Below, piece after piece: positions 3,664 through 52,639 of a DNA stretch of 64,000 nucleotides (its first letter is position 1; each line of letters opens with the position of its first letter). The stretch is from assembly GCA_051878345.1 (NCBI GenBank), contig JBJEJX010000074.1, positions 13,389 to 77,388 of the forward strand. The letters run 5' to 3'. The notes below the pieces were generated by a model that was not told the DNA's origin, did not search any database, and was given only the letters and a program-made list of their open reading frames with translations. The DNA comes from Paludibacteraceae bacterium. Its GTDB lineage: Bacteria; Bacteroidota; Bacteroidia; Bacteroidales; Paludibacteraceae. The translations under genes and the position numbers were made by a program.

Positions 3664-3815
3664 CACCGTGTTTTTCATGGTATTAGATTTAAGGTTAAGT
3701 AAAGATTGGGTTGTCGTGATGACAATCCTTCTTTTTTTATGGTTGAGTGTGTAGCGTTTGGAGGTTTCCGGAGTTTCCGAAAACGAACGTCCTGCTCTCA
3801 ACGGAAAATGGTATA

Positions 3816-11330: not shown

Positions 11331-11425
11331 AAGCCCCAACGGGGCGACATAAAACAGCGTAGGGTGAAACCCTACGAAAACGACACCCCCTCAAAAGCAA
11401 GCCCTATAAGGGCGACATAACTCAA
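11331..11425 (+). repeat. Triple-hairpin element, copy A
   Basis: aagccccaacggggc, cgtagggtgaaaccctacg and agccctataagggc hairpins with GACATAA linkers. Matches the reverse complement of 23186-23283. Confidence 0.75.
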
Positions 11426-13936: not shown

Positions 13937-14003
13937 CCTAATCACTAACCACTAATCACTAACCACTAATCACTAACCACTGCCCACTAACCACTACTCA
14001 CTC
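13937..14003. repeat. CACTAAY heptamer array (short copy)
   Basis: Direct reading. Overlaps the stop region of the convergent gene 13994..15574. Confidence 0.85.
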
Positions 14004-15574
14004 CCCCCAATCCCCCTCTGCCGTGCGAGGGTGAGCAGATACTCTTTTGCGGCGTCATACTCATTGGGAATCACGCCGTCGAGGATGGCGTCTTTGATAG
14101 CCGTCTTTAGTTCCCCCACGGTGGAGCAGGGCGGCAGGTTCAGCAGTTGCATGATTTCCTCTCCCCGCACGGGCGGTTGGAAGTTGCGGATACGGTCGCG
14201 CTCCTCTAACTCCACCATTTTCTGCCGCACGAGTTGGTAGTTCCGATGAAACCGCGCCACTTTGTCGGCGTTCCGCGAAGTGATGTCGGCATTGCAGAGG
14301 AGCATTAGGTCTTCAATGTCGTCCCCCGCCTCGAAGAGCAGGCGGCGCACCGCTGAGTCGGTAACGGTGTCTTCGATGAGGTTGATAGGACGCATGTGGA
14401 GGTCCACCATCTTGATGACATAGTCCATCTTCTCGTTCTGCGGCAGTTTCATCTGCCGGAAGATACGCGGAATCATGCGGGCGCCGAGGTAGTTATGGTT
14501 GCGGAATGTCCACCCCGCCTGCGGGTCGTAGGCTTTGGATCGCGGCTTGCCGATGTCGTGCAGCAGCGCAGCCCACCGCAGCCACAGTTTGTCGGAACTC
14601 TCGGCGAGGTTGTCCAGCACTTGCAGCGTGTGATAGAACACGTCTTTGTGCCCCTTGCCGTTCTTCACCTCCACGCCTTTCAATGCTGCCAGTTCCGGGA
14701 AGACAAGCGGCAGCAGCCCCGTCTTATCCAGCAGCAGCCAGCCCGCGGAGGGCTTGCGCGAGAGCATTATCTTGTTCAGTTCATCGGCGATACGCTCGCG
14801 GGTGATGATACGAATCCGCTCGCGGTTGCGGGCGATGGCGTCGAAGGTGTCGGGATGCAGCGTGAAGCCCAGTTGCGTGGCGAAGCGTATCGCCCTCATC
14901 ATGCGCAGAGGGTCGTCGGAGAAGGTGATGTCGGGGTCGAGCGGCGTGCGGATAATCATGTCCTGCATGTCCTGTATGCCGTTGAAGGGGTCGAGCAGGG
15001 TGCCGTAGCGCCCGCCGTTGATACAGATGGCGAGGGCGTTGATGGTGAAGTCGCGGCGGTTCTGGTCTTCTTCGAGGGTGCCGTCTTCCACGATGGGGTT
15101 GCGCGAGTCGTGGCGGTAACTCTCCCTGCGCGCACCCACAAACTCCAACTCTGTCTCGCCGCGTTTCACCTGCGCCGTGCCGTAGGTGCGGAAGACCGAG
15201 AGGTGCGCCCCCTTGCCGAGACGCTTGGCAACGGCCTGCGCCAGTTCGATACCGATGGAGGGCTTGGACCCTCCAAACTCGGGACCCTCCCCATCCCTCC
15301 CTACGAGGGAGGGGGAAAGATTGCCATTTATAGACGAAGGTAATCTATTCTCTCCCTCCCTTTGTAGGGAGGGGCGGGGTGGGTCGCTTACCCTCCCCCT
15401 TTGCAGGGGGAGTTGGAGGGGGTCCTTGGTCTTCACCACCACGATGTCAATATCGGTGGAAGGGCGGTGCAGTATCAAGTCGCGCACCCAGCCGCCTATC
15501 ACGTAGCAGTCCAACTGCAAACGGTCTGCCTCCTCGCCTACCAGATGAAGAATGGGGTTATCTAACGATTGCAT
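13994..15574 (-). CDS. tRNA nucleotidyltransferase / poly(A) polymerase family protein with HD domain (CCA-adding type)
   Basis: Start moved to ATG 15574 (MQSLDNPILHLVGEEA). Motifs seen are GGWVRD, DIDIVV, RRDFTINAL and the HD-region HDIGKP. Carries a ~50-aa in-frame repeat insertion. Confidence 0.8.
   Translation of the reverse strand: MQSLDNPILHLVGEEADRLQLDCYVIGGWVRDLILHRPSTDIDIVVVKTKDPLQLPLQRGRVSDPPRPSLQREGENRLPSSINGNLSPSLVGRDGEGPEFGGSKPSIGIELAQAVAKRLGKGAHLSVFRTYGTAQVKRGETELEFVGARRESYRHDSRNPIVEDGTLEEDQNRRDFTINALAICINGGRYGTLLDPFNGIQDMQDMIIRTPLDPDITFSDDPLRMMRAIRFATQLGFTLHPDTFDAIARNRERIRIITRERIADELNKIMLSRKPSAGWLLLDKTGLLPLVFPELAALKGVEVKNGKGHKDVFYHTLQVLDNLAESSDKLWLRWAALLHDIGKPRSKAYDPQAGWTFRNHNYLGARMIPRIFRQMKLPQNEKMDYVIKMVDLHMRPINLIEDTVTDSAVRRLLFEAGDDIEDLMLLCNADITSRNADKVARFHRNYQLVRQKMVELEERDRIRNFQPPVRGEEIMQLLNLPPCSTVGELKTAIKDAILDGVIPNEYDAAKEYLLTLARQRGIGGSE
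15266..15425. repeat. Composite GGGAGGG-palindrome element inside a coding region
   Basis: ccctccctacgagggaggg, tccctccctttgtagggagggg and ccctccccctttgcaggggg hairpins with an AT-rich spacer. Same architecture as the intergenic copies at 48129-48240 and 52524-52631. Confidence 0.85.
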
Positions 15575-15583
15575 AGTTTCTTT

Positions 15584-15765
15584 GGATGAAGGACAAAGGA
15601 TAAAAGACGAAAAAAACGAGATGGTTTCGACCACGCGGTTTCGGACACGAGGGTTCCGGTCTTTCATTCCGTGTCCTGTATCTTTCATTCTAACAGACAG
15701 AGGTTGGTCTTTTATCCTTATTATCTTTTAGTAATCGTGGCGAACGGTCTTTTGTCCTTAAATCC
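15584..15765. repeat. Low-complexity inverted arms (GGACAAAGG / CCTTTGTCC family)
   Basis: ggatgaaggacaaaggataaaagacg faces gtcttttatcc and gtcttttgtcc. Shares cctgtatctttca with 27914-28055. Confidence 0.7.
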
Positions 15766-16503: not shown

Positions 16504-16541
16504 AGACTGTCCGACCAATATGTCGGACAGTCTTTTGTTTT
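16504..16541 (+). terminator. Intrinsic terminator after rpsP
   Basis: 12-bp stem agactgtccgac / gtcggacagtct followed by tttgtttt. Confidence 0.85.
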
Positions 16542-16559: not shown

Positions 16560-16955
16560 GCCCCTTGATTGTCTGTCCTTTGTCCCTCACCCTTTGTCCC
16601 TCGCCCTTTGTCCTTCGCCCTTTATCCTTTGTCCCTCCCCCGCCTCCCTCCTGCCTCGTCCCCTGCCTCCCGCCTATCCCTTGCCTACCTCTCGCCCGTC
16701 CCTCGCCAATCTTCCGCCTGTCTCTCGTCTGCCTCGTCCCTGCTACCTTCCCCCGCCCTTTTTCGGTCAAATCCCACCTTATCCTTTCCGCTACCTTTCC
16801 GCTACCCTTGCGCTACCTTCGCGCTACCTTTAGGCAACCTTCTGCCCGCCCGTAGAGTCACCGCACATTACGGCTCTACCGACCTGCGACCGACCCGCGA
16901 CAGACCCGCGACAGACCCGCGATAGACCCGCGATAGACCCGCGACAAAAAATCGG
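16560..16955. repeat. Composite simple-repeat block (CCTTTGTCC units, CGCTACCYTT 10-mers, GACCCGCGAYA 11-mers)
   Basis: Direct reading. The right half matches 36772-36903 and, inverted, 56869-57237. Confidence 0.85.
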
Positions 16956-19539: not shown

Positions 19540-21270
19540 TTATCTTTTGTTGAGCGTTGTTATGTTCATTGTTTGTGCACAGGATATGTGTGCGGAACGT
19601 AGAAATGACGAACAATAATCGGTGGGTATGAAATGAAGAACGGCAACTGACGAATACAAAGTGCGAGAAGTAGCGCAGTTGGTAGCGCACCACGTTCGGG
19701 ACGTGGGGGTCGGGCGTTCGAGTCGCCTCTTCTCGACATACGGCGATTCCGAGAAATCGGAGTCGCTTTTTTCATTACTATCACCACTGTATTTCGCTGA
19801 TAATCTTGAAGATACACGAAATACCTCATTTACTACAGGTGTTCGATAATTCATATTTTTTTTATTATAGAACACTCCTTCTGGGAATATCAGCTCTTGC
19901 AATTTCTGTCGACCATGAAAATCTAACTCTTTCCAGCAATCTTCTAATCTACAAGCCATTAGCTCTGCAAACTCAGCCATCTTCTTGGTGTTCGATAGTG
20001 ATTCCTCCACTTCCTCCAGTTGTAATTGAATTTTGTTCTTCTCATCCGTCAATTTTTTTATTGCGATATTATATGTGTTTTGGTTAATATCGCCGATGGC
20101 AAACCTATATTCTACATTTTCTATTTGCGTTTCTATTTCTGTTAGATTCCTTTTGACTAAAGCACTATTTTGGGCTTTGGCACTATAATACTGTGTCATC
20201 TCATTATTGATAATCTCATTAACAATTGGAAATAATTCAATCTTGATTTGATACTGTGCTAATAATGTTTCATAATTTTCATGTAATTCCTTGGCGGATA
20301 TGTTTGCACAGCACCCCTTGGTATTACATTTGTAGTAATAATACGTTTTGTTTTGTCTGGAACGTGTATAACCAGTTAATGCCCCTCCGCAATCTTCACA
20401 AAATACATGCCTCTTCAGGGGGAAGGGTATTGTTTCTTTAGCCTGCGTATAGCCTATATGAGCTGCTGAATTTACTTGCTCAAAAGTAAGTTTATCAATA
20501 ATAGCCTCATGATTTCCTTGGATAATAGCCCCATCGCCCAACCTGGGATGAACTATCAATCCACAATAGAAAGGATTTTTTAAGATTTTGTTCAAATGTT
20601 TTGCTGTAACAGTTAATCCTATTGAATGTAATTTATTAACAATTTCCACTTCCCTTATTCCTTGCGCGCGCCAAATCCATGCTTTTTTTAAGATTTCGCC
20701 TTCTGGAGTAATACTAATCGTTGTAACTCCACCTATTTTTTTTCTTTCATAACCTAATGGAAGTTGAAACGGCCAGTTCCCTCTTTCTAATTGTGCTTGC
20801 TGTCCTTGCCTAATCTTATCGGTTCGCATAGCATTATCAAAATTCCCGAGTAGTAAAGAAAGATTCTCAACAAAGTCCCCAACTGAAGAATCTGGATCCG
20901 AGGCTTGAGTTGCCGAAATTACATATATTCCGTTTGCTTTCAATTTAGTTTTTGTTACAATTGCTTCGTTTGCACGGCTAAACCTATCAAAGGAATATAC
21001 AAGTATTATATTTACTTCTTTGTCTTTCAACGCCAATTGAATCATCTCTTTGTATAATTCACCTTCCGTCTTACCGCTTTCGTGCTGTCCCCCACAATAA
21101 TACTTAATATAAATACCATTATCAGCGGCATATTGTTCACAACGCTCCTTTTGAGTATTAAGAGAGCAATTCTCCTTTTCTTGTCTCTCACTAGATACTC
21201 GTGTCCAAACTATAGCCACTTTTCTAACTAATTTGCTGTATTGTATAGTTTCTCTTCTAACTTTGCTCAT
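19540..21270 (-). CDS. Large serine recombinase (native C-terminus probably near 19775; ORF runs on through host DNA)
   Basis: Resolvase catalytic N-terminus (VAIVWTRVSSERQ, SFDRFSR), recombinase domain, Cys-rich zinc ribbon (CEDCGG...YYKCNTKGC) and coiled coil. The last ~75 codons are antisense to the tRNA-Pro terminator, the tRNA and its leader. Confidence 0.85.
   Translation of the reverse strand: MSKVRRETIQYSKLVRKVAIVWTRVSSERQEKENCSLNTQKERCEQYAADNGIYIKYYCGGQHESGKTEGELYKEMIQLALKDKEVNIILVYSFDRFSRANEAIVTKTKLKANGIYVISATQASDPDSSVGDFVENLSLLLGNFDNAMRTDKIRQGQQAQLERGNWPFQLPLGYERKKIGGVTTISITPEGEILKKAWIWRAQGIREVEIVNKLHSIGLTVTAKHLNKILKNPFYCGLIVHPRLGDGAIIQGNHEAIIDKLTFEQVNSAAHIGYTQAKETIPFPLKRHVFCEDCGGALTGYTRSRQNKTYYYYKCNTKGCCANISAKELHENYETLLAQYQIKIELFPIVNEIINNEMTQYYSAKAQNSALVKRNLTEIETQIENVEYRFAIGDINQNTYNIAIKKLTDEKNKIQLQLEEVEESLSNTKKMAEFAELMACRLEDCWKELDFHGRQKLQELIFPEGVFYNKKNMNYRTPVVNEVFRVSSRLSAKYSGDSNEKSDSDFSESPYVEKRRLERPTPTSRTWCATNCATSRTLYSSVAVLHFIPTDYCSSFLRSAHISCAQTMNITTLNKR
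19664..19736 (+). tRNA. tRNA-Pro (anticodon CGG)
   Basis: Hand-folded cloverleaf. Acceptor CGAGAAG/CTTCTCG, D arm GCGC-AGTTGGTA-GCGC, anticodon arm CCACG-TTCGGGA-CGTGG, T arm GGGCG-TTCGAGT-CGCCT, discriminator A. Total 73 nt. Confidence 0.85.
19743..19772 (+). terminator. Intrinsic terminator after tRNA-Pro
   Basis: gcgattccga-gaaa-tcggagtcgc followed by tttttt. Confidence 0.7.
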
Positions 21271-23185: not shown

Positions 23186-23283
23186 TTGAGTTATGTCGCC
23201 CCGTTGGGGCTTACTTTAGGGGGGGGACTTCCCCACGTAGGGACGAGTCCCTACGCTGTTTTATGTCGCCCCTTCGGGGCTTT
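23186..23283 (-). repeat. Triple-hairpin element, copy B
   Basis: gccccgttggggc, cgtagggacgagtccctacg and gccccttcggggc hairpins. The reverse complement aligns with 11331-11425. Confidence 0.75.
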
Positions 23284-40937: not shown

Positions 40938-41294
40938 TTACTCCTCCATCTCCTTGGCGGCTTTCTCCAAGTTCTTGATTTTCTTCCCCGGTTTCGCAAG
41001 GGGCACCTGAGCGTCTATCTTCGTGTCAAGCCCCATCTTCTCCAAGGCTCTGCTTTTCACGAACCAGAATATAGCGAGCGCAGCCAGGAGCAAAGAGGCT
41101 CCGAGGGTGATATGTCCCGCCAGCGAACTGATAAGGCTGTACGCCACCCAGACCGCGCCGCCAAGACAAGCAAACCCGGCTATGCCCCCTATGCCGAACC
41201 CCGGCAACAGAAACATCTCCACCAATAGCAGTCCTACACCTGCCAATACCAGTATAACAACCAATGCGATATACATAATAAAATCCCCTTTCAA
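40938..41294 (-). CDS. Small membrane protein upstream of floA (NfeD-like TM region only)
   Basis: 118-aa ORF with two or three TM helices and a charged tail. No OB-fold-like C-terminus is evident. The start may be ATG 41276. Confidence 0.5.
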   Translation of the reverse strand: MKGDFIMYIALVVILVLAGVGLLLVEMFLLPGFGIGGIAGFACLGGAVWVAYSLISSLAGHITLGASLLLAALAIFWFVKSRALEKMGLDTKIDAQVPLAKPGKKIKNLEKAAKEMEE

Positions 41295-41375
41295 CTCCCC
41301 TCAGGGGAGGGCTTTTTAGTTAAACAGTAACAGTATTCATCAACTCCCTTCCTTTGCAGAGAGGGACGGGATGGG
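41295..41375. repeat. GGGAGGG-type palindromes (ctcccctcaggggaggg; ctcccttcctttgcagagagggacggg)
   Basis: Direct reading. Fills the entire spacer between two genes. Confidence 0.8.
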
Positions 41376-42059
41376 TCAAAATTGCTTCACCACTTCCGGC
41401 ACGCCTTCGGAGGCTTTCTTGCGGATGTGCGTTACGCGGTCGCGGTAGATACCGAACTCCGGCATGCCGGGGTCTATCACGTATATGGGTGCCTGCCTCG
41501 GCACATACTCCAAGAGCGAAGCCGCAGGATAGACGTTCAGGCTCGTCCCGACAACTATCATCACCTCCGCCTGCGACGCTATCTCACACGCCCGCGGGAA
41601 GTTGGGCACTCCCTCGCCAAAGAACACGATATAGGGGCGCAGCAGACTGCCGTCGGGATGCCTGCCGCCGTAGTGTTGCTCCCAGCCCTGCAAGTCCACC
41701 GTAGCGGTCTCGTCAATGTCCGACCTGAGTTTCCGTATCTCGCCGTGCAGGTGCAGCACATCATGCGCGCCGGCACGCTCGTGCAGGTCGTCAATGTTCT
41801 GCGTGATGATTTGCGTCTCGGGGTATCTCGCCTGCAATTCGGCTATCGCCATGTGGGCGGCATTCGGCTGTGCGGCTAAGGTATCGCGGCGACGGGCGTT
41901 GTAGAAATCCACGCACAACTGCGGGTTGCGCAGCCATGCCTCGTGCGTGCACACATCCTCCACGCGGTACCGCTCCCACAGTCCGTCCGCATCGCGGAAC
42001 GTGCCCAAGCCGCTCTCTGCGCTCACTCCCGCACCCGTAAACACTACTATTCGTTTCAT
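41376..42059 (-). CDS. cobB: NAD-dependent protein deacylase (sirtuin, CobB type)
   Basis: 227 aa with GAGVSAESGLGTFR, QNIDDLHERAG and HG. Confidence 0.9.
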   Translation of the reverse strand: MKRIVVFTGAGVSAESGLGTFRDADGLWERYRVEDVCTHEAWLRNPQLCVDFYNARRRDTLAAQPNAAHMAIAELQARYPETQIITQNIDDLHERAGAHDVLHLHGEIRKLRSDIDETATVDLQGWEQHYGGRHPDGSLLRPYIVFFGEGVPNFPRACEIASQAEVMIVVGTSLNVYPAASLLEYVPRQAPIYVIDPGMPEFGIYRDRVTHIRKKASEGVPEVVKQF

Positions 42060-44600: not shown

Positions 44601-44674
44601 GGCTCCGTAGCTTAGTTGAATAGAGCGTCAGATTCCGGTTCTGAAGGTCCTGGGTTTGAGTCCCAGCGGGGTCA
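44601..44674 (+). tRNA. tRNA-Arg (anticodon CCG)
   Basis: Hand-folded cloverleaf. Acceptor GGCTCCG/CGGGGTC (two G-U pairs), D arm GCTT-AGTTGAATA-GAGC, anticodon arm TCAGA-TTCCGGT-TCTGA, T arm CTGGG-TTTGAGT-CCCAG. Total 74 nt. Confidence 0.8.
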
Positions 44675-44680
44675 CATAGA

Positions 44681-47229: not shown

Positions 47230-48111
47230 TTATATCTTCAATCCGTTTATCTCTTCCACATCCTCATTATCAATCACTTCTATGTAGCGCAGTCGGCGGA
47301 AATCCGTTGCCAGCCGCACACGCACGGTGTAGTATGATGCGCCCTCTTCCAGTCGGCACTCTTCCACCACGCCCACGGGCACCCCTGCGGGGAAACTGGT
47401 GCTCAAGCCGCTCGTTACTATCGTGTCGCCTATGTTCACCTCCAAATGGGTAGCCACGTCCGCCAACTCGGCAAAGCGCGTGTCGCGACCGTCCCACTGC
47501 AGCGTACCGATATAATCGTTTTTCAGGAATCGGCAACTCAAATGCGTCTCTATGTTGATAAGCGGCAGCACCACCGAGTAGTGTTTGCCCACGGTTGCCA
47601 CGATACCTACCGCCCCTTCATCGTTGCGCACACCCATGCCCTCATATACGCCGTCTTCTTCCCCGCGGTTGACGGTCAGGTAGTTGCGCATGCCGTTCAT
47701 CGTCATCTGCACCACTTTACCCTCGCGATACACTATCGGCTCGCGACCCGCAAGACCTTCTGAATCCCCCTTAAAGGGGGACTTGCTGTCCGCTGACAGT
47801 ACCTCCGTGCTATCCATGCCCTCGCCGACAGCCAGACCACTGACCACTGACCACTGATTGCTGTTCTCCGCCCGGCTCCTCAGTATCGCGTTCTCGGCTG
47901 CCAAGCGGTCGTTCACCCCTTTCAGCCCGAAATAGCCCGTAACCTCCGACACCATCTCATACTGCCATGCCACCAGCCTGTTGGCGGTGCTCAGCACACT
48001 GCTGCGGGGGTAGGCATTGCACCACACCACCAGCAAAAACGCGGCAACTTCCAGCAGGATGAACAGCAGGAAGTTGCCATAGCGCAGTATGAATTTGAGC
48101 AAAGTTTGCAT
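47230..48111 (-). CDS. mreC: Rod shape-determining protein MreC
   Basis: Start moved to ATG 48111 (MQTLLKFILRYGNF). TM helix, coiled coil and beta domains, in the expected position. In-frame repeats at 47765-47857. Confidence 0.85.
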   Translation of the reverse strand: MQTLLKFILRYGNFLLFILLEVAAFLLVVWCNAYPRSSVLSTANRLVAWQYEMVSEVTGYFGLKGVNDRLAAENAILRSRAENSNQWSVVSGLAVGEGMDSTEVLSADSKSPFKGDSEGLAGREPIVYREGKVVQMTMNGMRNYLTVNRGEEDGVYEGMGVRNDEGAVGIVATVGKHYSVVLPLINIETHLSCRFLKNDYIGTLQWDGRDTRFAELADVATHLEVNIGDTIVTSGLSTSFPAGVPVGVVEECRLEEGASYYTVRVRLATDFRRLRYIEVIDNEDVEEINGLKI

Positions 48112-48128
48112 AAGAAGGAAAGATGGAA

Positions 48129-48240
48129 CCCACCCCAACCCTCCCTACGAAGGGAGGGAGTAGGAGAATTACATTTGTCTATAGATTCTAATTTTTCTCC
48201 CTCCCTCTGTAGGGAGGGACGGGGTGGGTCCTGGGGTCCT
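48129..48240. repeat. Composite GGGAGGG-palindrome element between mreB and mreC
   Basis: ccctccctacgaagggaggga, an AT-rich spacer, then tccctccctctgtagggagggacggggtggg. Confidence 0.85.
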
Positions 48241-50113: not shown

Positions 50114-50177
50114 AACAGAGGCGCAAAACATGGATACACCCATAACTATTCTTAAATTAAATGACCACCAACCACTT

Positions 50178-52523
50178 ATGAAACCGAACTTAACATTCCT
50201 TATAGCCTTGCTTCTTCTGCCCCTTGCCGCTTTGGCAAAGCCTGTCAGCGGCGTAGTAACGGACGACAGAGGCGAACCGCTGATAGGCGCGAATGTCTAT
50301 TGGGCGGGTACCGGCACGGGTGTCGCCACCGACATAGACGGGGCGTTCTCGCTGCCTGTCGTCAGCAGCACGAACCTGCTGGTTACCAGTTATATGGGTT
50401 ACCACAACGACACCACCAAAGTGCACGGCGGCGAGCAACTGACCATCGTCCTCGTGTCTGACCTTGTGCTGGACGAGGTAACCATCACGGAGCGCAAAAT
50501 GGCGGTGCTCCGCTCGCGCACCGCTGCCTTCGACACGCAGACGCTGACGGGCGATGAACTATGCAAAGCCGCCTGCTGCAACCTGTCGGAGAGTTTCGAG
50601 ACCAGTGCGTCGGTGGATGTGGCATACGCCGATGCCGCCACGGGAGCGAAGCAGATACGCCTGCTCGGACTGAGCGGCACCTATGTGCAACTGCTCACGG
50701 AAAACACCCCTAATGTGCGCGGACTGGCGCAGTCGTTCGGCATGGAGTATATCCCCGGCGCGTGGATGGAAGCCATACAGGTGAGCAAAGGCACATCCTC
50801 CGTCATCAACGGCTACGAGGCGATAGCGGGGCAGATAAACGTGGAGTTCCTCAAGCCGCAGAAGCAAGACCCTATTGCCGTGAACCTATACCTTAACACC
50901 GAACTCATGGCGGAGATAAACGCCACAGGCGGCTGGGACATCAACGACAAAGTCTCCACGGGCGTGCTGTTGAACGCCAAAGACATGGAGTTGGAAATGG
51001 ACCACAACCACGACGGCTTTGCGGACATGCCCCGCAACCGCAACCTCAACCTGCTCAACCGCTGGTATATCAAGTCGGGCGACTACACGGGGCAAGTGCT
51101 CGTCCGCACCCTCTACGACCAACGCCTCGGCGGGACGCTGTCTTCTCTCAACGCTCAACTCTCAACGCTCAACGCTGCGCAATCTTATCCTATCGACCTG
51201 CGCACGCGGCGGATAGACGGCTTTGTGAAGAACGGCTATGTGTTCGACCAGGAGACGGGCATGTCTGTCGGCGTCATCGCATCCGCATCCTACCATAGCC
51301 AAAGCAACCGCTACGGCTCGCGCCTGTGGGACGCCAACCAGACCAACGCCTACCTGAACGCCATCTTCCAGACCTCGTTTGAAGACCCCGAATTGGACCC
51401 CTTCGACTACCACGAGCACAAACTCTCCGCCGGTATATCCGTCAACTACGACCGCTACGATGAGCGGTACAACGGGATTTTTGGCGGCATGAACGCCCCG
51501 TTGGGTATGCTCCTGAACGAACTCACGCCGGGTATGTTCGCCGAGTACACCTATTCCTACAAAGACAAGGTTACGCTCCTTGTGGGTCTGCGGGAGGACT
51601 ACTCCACCCGCTACGGCTTCTTCACCACGCCGCGTATGAACCTGCGCTATGCGCCCTTCGAGTGGTGGACGCTGCGCGGAAGCGTGGGCTTGGGTTACCG
51701 CTCGCCCAACATCGTTGCCGACAATGCCGCCTACCTGCCTTCCAACCGGGTCTATACAATGGACAAGAGCCTGAAGCAGGAACGCTCGCTCAACACGGGT
51801 CTCACCACCACTTTCTATATCCCCGTCGGCAAGCGTGAACTGACGCTCTCCGCCGAGTACTACTACACCCGCTTCCTCGACGGCGTGATAGCCGACATCG
51901 ACCAATACCTGCACGGCGTGCGGCTGTTCAACATAAGCGACATCCCCGGCGCCGAATCCTACTCGCACAACTATCAGATAGAGGCGAACATGGAGATACT
52001 GCGCGGCTGGACCATGACGGCAGCCTTCCGCTATACGGATGTGAAGCAGAGCACCTTTCTGCCCACGGGCGAACTGGTCCTAATGGACAAGGCGCTGCAA
52101 AATCAGTTCAAGGCGGTGCTCACCACCAGTTACCAAACGCCGCTGAAGACATGGCAGTTCGACTTCACGGCGCAGTTCAACGGTCCCGGTCGTATGCCCA
52201 CGGGCTTCACCATACCCGAAGGCAGCAAACAGTACTATACGGCTCCCTCCCTTGTAGGGAGGGATGGGGAGGGTCCTATCTATCACAAGTGGTATCCACA
52301 GTTGCTCGGACAGATTACCAAGTACTGGCGCACCTGCTCGCTCTATCTCGGCGCGGAGAACATGACCAACTTCACCCAAGACAGCCCGCTCAAAGGCGAC
52401 CGGTACGAGAACAGCACCCATGTGAACCCCTACTCGTCCGACTTTGACGCCTCCATGGTATGGGCACCCATCAACGGATGGAAAATCTACCTCGGCTTCC
52501 GCTGGAACTTGGAAAGAGAATGA
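50178..52523 (+). CDS. TonB-dependent receptor with carboxypeptidase-regulatory-like N-terminal domain
   Basis: Start at ATG 50178 (MKPNLTFLIALLLLPLAALA). GVVTDDRGEPLIGANV, a plug domain and a beta-barrel ending ...LGFRWNLERE. Two in-frame repeat insertions. Confidence 0.85.
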   Translation: MKPNLTFLIALLLLPLAALAKPVSGVVTDDRGEPLIGANVYWAGTGTGVATDIDGAFSLPVVSSTNLLVTSYMGYHNDTTKVHGGEQLTIVLVSDLVLDEVTITERKMAVLRSRTAAFDTQTLTGDELCKAACCNLSESFETSASVDVAYADAATGAKQIRLLGLSGTYVQLLTENTPNVRGLAQSFGMEYIPGAWMEAIQVSKGTSSVINGYEAIAGQINVEFLKPQKQDPIAVNLYLNTELMAEINATGGWDINDKVSTGVLLNAKDMELEMDHNHDGFADMPRNRNLNLLNRWYIKSGDYTGQVLVRTLYDQRLGGTLSSLNAQLSTLNAAQSYPIDLRTRRIDGFVKNGYVFDQETGMSVGVIASASYHSQSNRYGSRLWDANQTNAYLNAIFQTSFEDPELDPFDYHEHKLSAGISVNYDRYDERYNGIFGGMNAPLGMLLNELTPGMFAEYTYSYKDKVTLLVGLREDYSTRYGFFTTPRMNLRYAPFEWWTLRGSVGLGYRSPNIVADNAAYLPSNRVYTMDKSLKQERSLNTGLTTTFYIPVGKRELTLSAEYYYTRFLDGVIADIDQYLHGVRLFNISDIPGAESYSHNYQIEANMEILRGWTMTAAFRYTDVKQSTFLPTGELVLMDKALQNQFKAVLTTSYQTPLKTWQFDFTAQFNGPGRMPTGFTIPEGSKQYYTAPSLVGRDGEGPIYHKWYPQLLGQITKYWRTCSLYLGAENMTNFTQDSPLKGDRYENSTHVNPYSSDFDASMVWAPINGWKIYLGFRWNLERE

Positions 52524-52631
52524 CCCAACCCTACCCTCCCTGCAAAGGGAGGGAGAAAATATAATTACTTATTGTTTAACTAAAACTAATTAACCTTCTC
52601 TCCCCCTTTGTAGGGGGAGTTGGAGGGGGTC
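52524..52631. repeat. Composite GGGAGGG-palindrome element
   Basis: ccctccctgcaaagggaggga, an AT-rich spacer, then ctccccctttgtagggggagttggaggggg. Confidence 0.85.
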
Positions 52632-52639
52632 CGTTTCTT

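Follow-up and report, generated by a model that had tools for sequence, protein, structure and literature searches.

A composite palindromic repeat in frame within the CCA tRNA nucleotidyltransferase gene of a Paludibacteraceae bacterium, and its apparently undescribed repeat family in Bacteroidales

Rickettsia palindromic elements (RPEs), classified as RPE-1 to RPE-10, are dispersed palindromic repeats of ~100–150 bp (Ogata et al. 2000/2002; summarised in PMC10969869 and PMC3733652). Repetitive extragenic palindromic (REP) sequences, known superfamilies of which are defined by a GTAG or CGTC tag (Di Nocera et al. 2013, PMC3733652), also occur in frame inside genes in Opitutus, Thauera and others (PMC10969869, PMC3733652). 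[quoted passage not shown] The phenomenon of in-frame palindromic repeats is thus itself already known, and the case described here adds to a known kind. We analysed a 64,000-nt window of DNA from a metagenome-assembled genome (MAG) of a Paludibacteraceae bacterium, to which all positions below refer. Its cca gene, encoding a CCA tRNA nucleotidyltransferase, contains a composite palindromic segment that is an insertion rather than a native part of the gene. The segment is a nested or fused copy of a non-autonomous palindromic repeat family of Bacteroidales, which very probably resides as a tolerated passenger in a permissive loop of a working enzyme.

The cca product matches, at 100% identity, a protein that NCBI lists as 'MAG: CCA tRNA nucleotidyltransferase [Paludibacteraceae bacterium]'. 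Its minus-strand open reading frame (ORF) covers 13994–15688, and the annotated protein starts at 15574 (MQSLDNPILH...). The protein belongs to the class II CCA-adding enzyme and poly(A) polymerase family, as it combines a PolyA_pol head, the GGxVRD and DxD motifs, an RNA-binding domain and an HD domain; three Pfam domains were detected (PF01743, PF12627 and PF01966), none of which overlaps the insert. Alignment with orthologues showed the GGWVRD and DIDIVV motifs to be intact. The insert, which encodes DPLQLPLQRGRVSDPPRPSLQREGENRLPSSINGNLSPSLVGRDGEGPEFGGS, begins seven residues past the second catalytic aspartate and separates the catalytic DIDIVVV strand from the IGIELAQAVAKRLG helix. An earlier sequence-only reading of this DNA had placed a palindromic element here, between the DIDIVV motif and the downstream segment, and had it adding about 50 residues without a stop codon or frameshift. 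The element is present as described: translation passes from DIDIVVVKTK through the insert into KPSIGIELAQAVAKRLG, the frame is continuous with zero stops, and the addition is exactly 53 codons. Peptides predicted from the insert include VSDPPRPSLQR, LPSSINGNLSPSLVGR and DGEGPEFGGSKPSIGIELAQAVAK.

The building block of the repeat is a module of ~33–35 nt, in which an 8-bp C/T-rich hairpin is followed by a G-rich terminus. Two end types can be distinguished: type A has the form CCCTCCCT-loop-AGGGAGGG-NN-GGGG[T/A]GGGTC, and type B the form CTCCCCCT-loop-AGGGGGAG-TT-[G/A]GAG[G/A]GGGTC. The sequence-only reading had spoken of a two-hairpin element, but the cca copy comprises three hairpin-plus-terminus modules (Table 1). 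The A modules of its inner unit were matched by nhmmer at 33.3 and 34.8 bits and are separated by an AT-rich spacer of ~40 nt that holds TCTATAAATGGCAATCT/ACGAAGGTAAT. As a whole, the cca copy looks like a full A-A unit that lies within, or is joined to, another unit with B termini that pair with each other. The proposed kinship with the intergenic copies stands: the cca segment aligns with them module by module, with their bounds now set as in Table 1, and does so in both orientations because the unit is itself palindromic. The hairpin motif CCCTCCCT-N4-AGGGAGGG, allowing up to two mismatches, occurs five times in the window; shuffled sequences contained a mean of 0.02, and none of 100 shuffles reached five.

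Table 1. Positions of the cca gene, the parts of its insert and other copies of the repeat in the 64,000-nt window.
Feature	Position	Strand	Remarks
cca gene	13994..15574	-	526 aa; PolyA_pol head, RNA-binding and HD domains; 100% identity to NCBI protein
Composite palindromic insert	15266..15425	-	In-frame part 15266-15424 = 53 codons, residues 51-103
Outer lone B-type terminus GGACCCTCCAAACTC	15266..15280		Pairs with 15411-15425 in predicted fold
GACCCTCCCC-AT-CCCTCCCT-ACG-AGGGAGGG	15283-15313	+	Plus-strand reading
CCCTCCCT-TTGT-AGGGAGGG-GC-GGGGTGGGTC	15354-15385	+	Plus-strand reading; GCTTAC occurs before next hairpin
CTCCCCCT-TTGC-AGGGGGAG-TT-GGAGGGGGTCC	15393-15425	+	Plus-strand reading
Inner complete two-ended A-A unit	15283..15385		A modules 15283-15316 (reverse) and 15351-15385, conserved spacer between
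B-type module CTCCCCCT-TTGC-AGGGGGAG-TT-GGAGGGGGTCC	15391..15425		40.0 bits (module profile)
Degraded copy CTCCCCTCAGGGGAG, spacer, CTCCCTTCCTTTGCAGAGAGGGACGGGATGGGTC	41290..41377		30.2 bits; outside coding sequence or at gene end
Short B-like hairpin TCCCCCTTTAAGGGGGA	47760..47781	-	In frame in mreC-like ORF 47230-48138; weak match, 15.9 bits
A-A copy	48126..48231		Fills gap between mreB-like and mreC-like genes exactly; conserved in relative L120
Solo A module	52243..52275	+	In frame in TonB-dependent receptor gene 50130-52523; ..YYT-APSLVGRDGEGP-IYHKWY..
A-B copy	52522..52632		Between TonB-dependent receptor and HMA-domain genes; receptor TGA overlaps first bases

That the segment is an insertion follows from comparison with orthologues, the check proposed in the sequence-only reading. 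No equivalent conserved segment exists across Bacteroidales, and the length of the site varies throughout the protein family. In many orthologues from Paludibacteraceae and Bacteroidales, 469 aa long, DIDVVVV leads straight into GSGI ('VVVGSGI') with no extra residues, the nearest element-free clade (80% identity) has a loop of 14–18 aa, and other Paludibacteraceae orthologues carry unrelated inserts of 30–70 aa. Sequence derived from the element was found only in the two closest orthologues, P0002 (89%) and P0003 (88%). Three independent assemblies from different projects carry the element at the same cca site, with the frame intact in each. The distance from VVV to IGI is 177 nt in the window, 126 nt in L001 and 231 nt in L002, each divisible by three, and the build differs: a B module, an A-A unit and a B terminus in the window, a decayed left part with one A end in L001, and a B-A unit with two further solo A modules in L002. 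Within the ≥90%-identity cluster of P0002, some alleles carry an unrelated 60-nt loop (KNAASGYAGVPACSQGGPVS or KTTASGCAPTGRDSQGGAVS) instead of the element, so that, over a short evolutionary distance, presence of the element at this site is polymorphic. The search for an empty site whose flanks match those of a filled one yielded none; the nearest element-free alleles (L122 and L123) have a wholly different loop, and the boundaries of the insertion are therefore approximate, as would be those of any short duplication. Nor did the intergenic copies provide an empty site, being conserved in the available relative.

To place the cca copy in its family, we scanned one genome per species for a perfect A end (CCCTCCCT-N3-5-AGGGAGGG-NN-GGGG-N-GGGTC) and obtained at least 115 stretches. 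Almost all of the matches listed come from MAGs of uncultured Paludibacteraceae, Prevotellaceae, Bacteroidaceae or unclassified Bacteroidales; the sources were rumen, horse, deer, reindeer, yak and human gut. Lewinella and Sphingobium gave one match each. Profile hidden Markov models (HMMs) of the A and B modules were then run over the window and 118 loci (L001–L118), 848 kb in all, and returned 255 modules in 172 clusters, six of which are in the window; 65 of the 172 clusters hold at least two modules. Ends combine freely (AA, AB, BA), and the copies take the form of solo modules, inverted doublets of 66–150 nt or nested composites, with standard units of ~104–112 nt. A doublet forms a single long hairpin; for the intergenic A-A copy next to the mreC-like gene, DNA folding gave −33.4 kcal/mol (z = −6.5). 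The spacer is conserved in Paludibacteraceae (..ATTACCTTCGTCTATAGA.ACTAATCTTTCT), and the loop tetranucleotide depends on lineage (TTGT, TTAA, CACA or AAAC).

Searches against existing families did not trace the element. Rfam gave no match to it at the gathering threshold, and its E-value mode returned only eukaryotic microRNA (miRNA)-precursor models (14–38 bits against thresholds of 42–120), an outcome that reflects a generic long hairpin. With the 53-aa insert peptide, a word-index protein search gave no candidate, and HMMER over 1.84 billion representatives gave one irrelevant repetitive protein. The peptide is short and compositionally biased, so protein-level tools cannot trace it, and the census was therefore made at the DNA level. 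The A-module pattern also occurs in eight stretches of six IMG/VR viral or proviral contigs (L124–L131), which could represent phage DNA or host flanks. A smaller palindrome, GAGCACCCCAAAAATC..GATTTTTCGGGGACCCCGC, and its variants lie inside A and B hairpin loops (8400–8560 of L120; L047, L049, L114 and L008). This suggests either that the hairpin loop is an insertion target or that these are variants with an extended stem.

The sequence-only reading had called for a census of the element and its frame within coding sequences, which was made on the 848-kb sample. A cluster was called intragenic only if a stop-free frame extended across it and 150 nt or more beyond either end, and if the same frame scored best of six in both flanks under a codon-usage model trained on long ORFs. 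By this measure, 38 of the 162 non-edge clusters are in frame within genes, with three more near locus edges (38–41/162). Nine sampled hosts were confirmed by Pfam to be real proteins. They are GH97, SpoU methylase, RsmE, Maf, a Gate-domain membrane protein and leucyl-tRNA synthetase, together with a sensor histidine kinase (two inserts), RlmN (two inserts) and a DEAD/DbpA helicase (several inserts). Certain insert peptides recur, namely (S)PSLCREGRGGS, SLPLREGRGGS, DPPQPSLKGRE, TLSNSPLKGE and SPFKGE.E, as well as LPSSI(D/E)TNL from the spacer. All of the intragenic copies examined have lengths divisible by three and lack stops in the frame of their host, and in the sampled loci none was found that cuts one gene into two frames. 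A further 19 clusters lie between co-directional genes, typically filling the gap exactly: the stop codon either lies 1–9 nt ahead of the element or overlaps the TGACCC at its end, and 3–16 nt separate the element from the next ATG.

Coding sequence holds about 25% of clusters, whereas ORFs make up 88% of the DNA sampled. Such a 3.5-fold depletion would be expected from the loss of most insertions in genes. Translated by hand, a solo A module whose loop is TTGT has five open frames of six, and multi-module elements have 1.7–1.9 stop-free frames of six, equal to composition-matched shuffles. Special adaptation to coding was rejected on this ground, and the in-frame copies look like survivors of a filter rather than products of design.

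The cca insert is predicted to form a disordered loop in the strand-to-helix turn right after the catalytic aspartates. AlphaFold2, run with the orthologue alignment, gave a mean pLDDT (predicted local distance difference test) of 78, and residues 51–102 fell below 50 with no secondary structure, between a confident strand (42–48) and a confident helix (107–119). Alignment to solved A-adding and CCA-adding enzymes (relatives in the PDB include 3wfo, 1vfg and 1miv) skips query residues 57–108. Both results agree with the surface loop that had been expected at this position.

We consider it very probable that the cca copy is carried in frame by a working gene, as a passenger tolerated in a permissive loop, and most likely it is neutral or slightly deleterious passenger DNA rather than an adaptation of the enzyme. 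In the mechanism we propose, copies would land, or spread by recombination, genome-wide, and those in coding sequence would survive only where the frame is kept, no stop codon arises and the loop tolerates extra residues. Transcription and translation of the insert would then give a disordered loop of 53 residues with much Pro, Gly, Ser and Arg, and the enzyme would keep working.

Some considerations weigh against this explanation. The census sample is biased, as its loci were chosen by the perfect A-module pattern, in a scan that matched at least 115 stretches. Mobility would rest on copy number, presence/absence polymorphism and differing element types at the same loops, and translation of the insert is inferred. 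All of the genomes are MAGs, in which a consistent assembler artefact at repeats is conceivable, though the assemblies of three projects agree, and the MAG may hold a second, uninterrupted cca copy.

The insert could instead have been co-opted and kept by selection, with its hairpin or G-quadruplex tuning cca translation or mRNA stability, or with the loop having a role in the protein. The segment of cca mRNA folds into a very stable structure (−97.2 kcal/mol, z = −7.2) and has a G-quadruplex-capable G-rich arm on the mRNA strand (GGGAGGGAUGGGGAGGG); across the sample, the canonical G-quadruplex motif GGGAGGGnnGGGGnGGG, with its four G3+ runs, is present on the G-rich strand of 187 of 255 modules. 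The element also persists across relatives at dS ~0.4–0.6, and intergenic copies are placed precisely within operons (mreB/mreC), as REP sequences and bacterial interspersed mosaic elements (BIMEs) are. Nevertheless, the differing builds in all three carriers and the close alleles without the element indicate turnover, not conservation. The same modules occur in many unrelated proteins, their number of open frames is that of shuffled sequence, and the insert is predicted to be disordered. Co-option is therefore unlikely, and we prefer the passenger explanation.

It is very unlikely that cca is a pseudogene, or inactivated by the insert, with an open frame that is coincidental. The closeness of the insert to the second catalytic aspartate speaks for such a loss, as does the MAG source, which leaves room for another cca copy. 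Between carriers, however, dN/dS outside the insert is 0.04–0.07 at dS 0.43–0.59 (~460 codons), which indicates that cca is kept under strong purifying selection while bearing the element. The frame is kept in all three carriers despite the differing insert lengths, and the catalytic motifs are intact. Neither of the two tRNA genes in the window, tRNA-Pro(CGG) at 19664–19737 and tRNA-Arg(CCG) at 44601–44675, encodes the CCA end, and CCA addition is therefore needed. With low dN/dS and tRNA genes of this kind, the gene looks functional, and disruption, the outcome named in the sequence-only reading as counting against an in-frame insertion, was not observed in any of the three assemblies.

It is just as improbable that the segment is removed or skipped in expression, whether by splicing of the RNA or of the protein or by ribosomal bypassing. 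The insert does form a compact, very stable hairpin, and such hairpins are found with translational bypassing elements elsewhere. Removal would, however, make the in-frame and stop-free state of all intragenic copies examined an unnecessary constraint, which weighs against it. No Rfam intron or other family matched the segment, only the sub-threshold eukaryotic miRNA-precursor models noted above. An intein was rejected as a candidate: the splicing domain of an intein spans ~130 aa or more, has Cys or Ser at its N terminus and ends in His-Asn, with Cys, Ser or Thr next, whereas the 53-residue insert starts with Asp (DPLQ) and ends with Ser (..GGS), followed by K. Least credible of all is a native, lineage-specific low-complexity expansion that resembles the repeats by composition: the site is length-variable family-wide and bears unrelated low-complexity inserts in other Paludibacteraceae, but the segment shares DNA identity with the intergenic copies, module by module, as far as the termini and the non-repetitive spacer (ATTACCTTCGTCTATA..), HMMs built from copies in other genomes match at 33–40 bits, and the DNA alignments already refute such an expansion, barring assembly chimeras.

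Downstream of the A-B copy in the window, the next ATG comes 7 nt past its end. The solo A module in the TonB-dependent receptor gene encodes APSLVGRDGEGP, which amounts to 11 residues beyond orthologues without the module. More distant orthologues have 'SG-DY' in this loop, and in close relatives it is occupied by a B module (SPSVGGVGGGPE) or by another palindrome (LSDRSAEGPRSALSDGQ), which makes the loop a turnover hotspot. The short hairpin in the mreC-like ORF is translated as ..KSPFKGDSEG.. in a length-variable loop, and in L120 the loop of this hairpin contains a further, small palindrome (KSPFAGSPKNLDFWGALKGDLEG).

Further repeats and RNA matches were observed in the window. A palindrome, TGTCCGACCAATATGTCGGACA, lies at 16508–16535, just past an rpsP-like gene, and a related palindrome appears translated (LSDRSAEGPRSALSDGQ) in the TonB-receptor loop of the relatives P0129, P0130 and P0132. 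C/T-rich runs resembling CCTTTGTCC occur at 16560–16760 downstream of rpsP, and their complement, GGACAAAGG, at 15590–15760 upstream of cca; they form a low-complexity repeat of intergenic DNA. The Rfam family Acido-Lenti-1 RNA was matched above its gathering score at 23236–23281 (+; 45.3 bits) and 11332–11376 (−; 43.2 bits). Together with neighbouring TTATGTCGCCCC-TTCG-GGGGC hairpins, these matches look like another dispersed two-hairpin repeat rather than a dedicated small RNA (sRNA) gene. The Bacteroidetes FopS sRNA family was matched at 3668–3741 (+) with 77.2 bits against a gathering score of 56.

How copies of the palindromic family spread was approached through their ends and flanks. 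In 35 two-ended copies, terminal inverted repeats of the form GACCC[A/T]CCCC ... GGGG[T/A]GGGTC are present, as in MITEs, and in most cases an A precedes and a T follows the element (...A|GACCC...GGGTC|T...); a search around these 35 copies found no target-site duplication. A CCAAG repeat flanking the cca copy was considered as a duplication but is not shared by relatives and was treated as chance. The search for an autonomous parent yielded a single pair of inverted ends 250–3500 nt apart in the sample, enclosing a 63-aa ORF that is not transposase-like; an inverted-end pair in L007 resolved into two independent solo modules on either side of ordinary genes and was discarded as a parent element. 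In the sampled 8-kb stretches around pattern matches, no module-flanked gene for a REP-associated tyrosine transposase (RAYT, a Y1 HUH transposase) was seen. Hairpin ends, the lack of target-site duplication, A...T flanks and nesting in loops fit a single-strand process of the HUH/RAYT type, as for REP sequences and REPINs (REP doublets forming hairpins), better than cut-and-paste movement of a MITE. We therefore infer that the copies may have moved by such a single-strand mechanism rather than as classical MITEs.

Selfish DNA within protein genes is best known from Rickettsia, and our results suggest that abundant, free-living Bacteroidales of gut and rumen commonly carry it as well. Its hosts include the essential genes cca, leuS and rlmN, and it gives rise to presence/absence and length polymorphism between ~90%-identical genomes. 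The interest of the family lies in this breadth, in its high intragenic share and in its essential-gene hosts. For annotation, the repeat inflates protein clusters and yields spurious low-complexity segments, examples being PSLCREGRGGS, SLPLREGRGGS, DPPQPSLKGRE and TLSNSPLKGE, and it can break MAG assemblies. For research on mobile elements, it offers a large modular family with G-quadruplex-capable ends and no transposase assigned, and for protein engineering the inserts flag naturally permissive sites in well-studied folds. A wider proposal, that these repeats form an order-wide Bacteroidales system of hairpin and G-quadruplex mobile palindromes that is moved by an HUH-like enzyme and, through recurring insertion, nesting and loss, is a major source of loop-length hypervariability in the proteins of commensals of gut and rumen, can be put forward only tentatively, and we lean against it at present. 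If it were true, turnover in the surface loops of TonB-dependent receptors could matter for phage or immune recognition, and essential RNA enzymes would be affected too.

The repeat family is real, is RPE-like or intragenic-REP-like, and is apparently undescribed. A full-text literature search returned nothing on such elements in Bacteroidales, Prevotella or Paludibacteraceae, in keeping with the sequence-only reading, which knew of no description in Bacteroidales; in-frame REPs inside genes are known elsewhere as well (PMC3733652), so the phenomenon stands less alone than that reading had implied. Like MITEs, the family is short and non-coding, has terminal inverted repeats, forms RNA hairpins and makes occasional in-frame fusions. 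Unlike MITEs, it has no detectable target-site duplication and no parent insertion sequence with the same ends in the sample, and its modular hairpin-plus-terminus build is unlike that of a deleted insertion sequence.

The likeness to REP, BIME and REPIN sequences is closer in architecture. These are imperfect palindromes of 20–40 nt (33–35 nt for the modules here) whose inverted doublets form long hairpins. Both groups are found mostly between co-directional or convergent genes after stop codons, without target-site duplication, and both have some copies in frame in genes of replication, repair and RNA enzymes. The termini of the Bacteroidales family are GACCC/GGGTC rather than the GTAG or CGTC end tag of REPs; GTAG appears only at the junction of stem and TTGT loop and is missing in the lineages with TTAA, CACA or AAAC loops. 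REPINs are mobilised by RAYT transposases, whereas no module-flanked RAYT was seen in the Bacteroidales sample, and the intragenic share of ~25% appears much higher than that of typical REPs.

With regard to RPEs, the hosts differ, being obligate intracellular Alphaproteobacteria in the one case and free-living gut and rumen bacteria in the other. The Bacteroidales family is further set apart by its G/C-rich, G-quadruplex-capable arms, its two interchangeable end types and its frequent solo 33-nt modules and nested composites. The resemblance to in-frame Rickettsia elements that had been proposed for the cca copy holds in behaviour; sequence homology to RPEs would be unlikely given the host phylum and base composition. 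Size and copy number are of the RPE type (160 nt for the cca composite), and in-frame insertion is frequent and compatible with the host fold. Both groups are palindromes of ~100–150 bp, dispersed in many copies between genes and in frame within them, with no known transposase of their own. In both, a large share of copies lies in frame in unrelated housekeeping genes, where tens of residues are added and the protein is kept.

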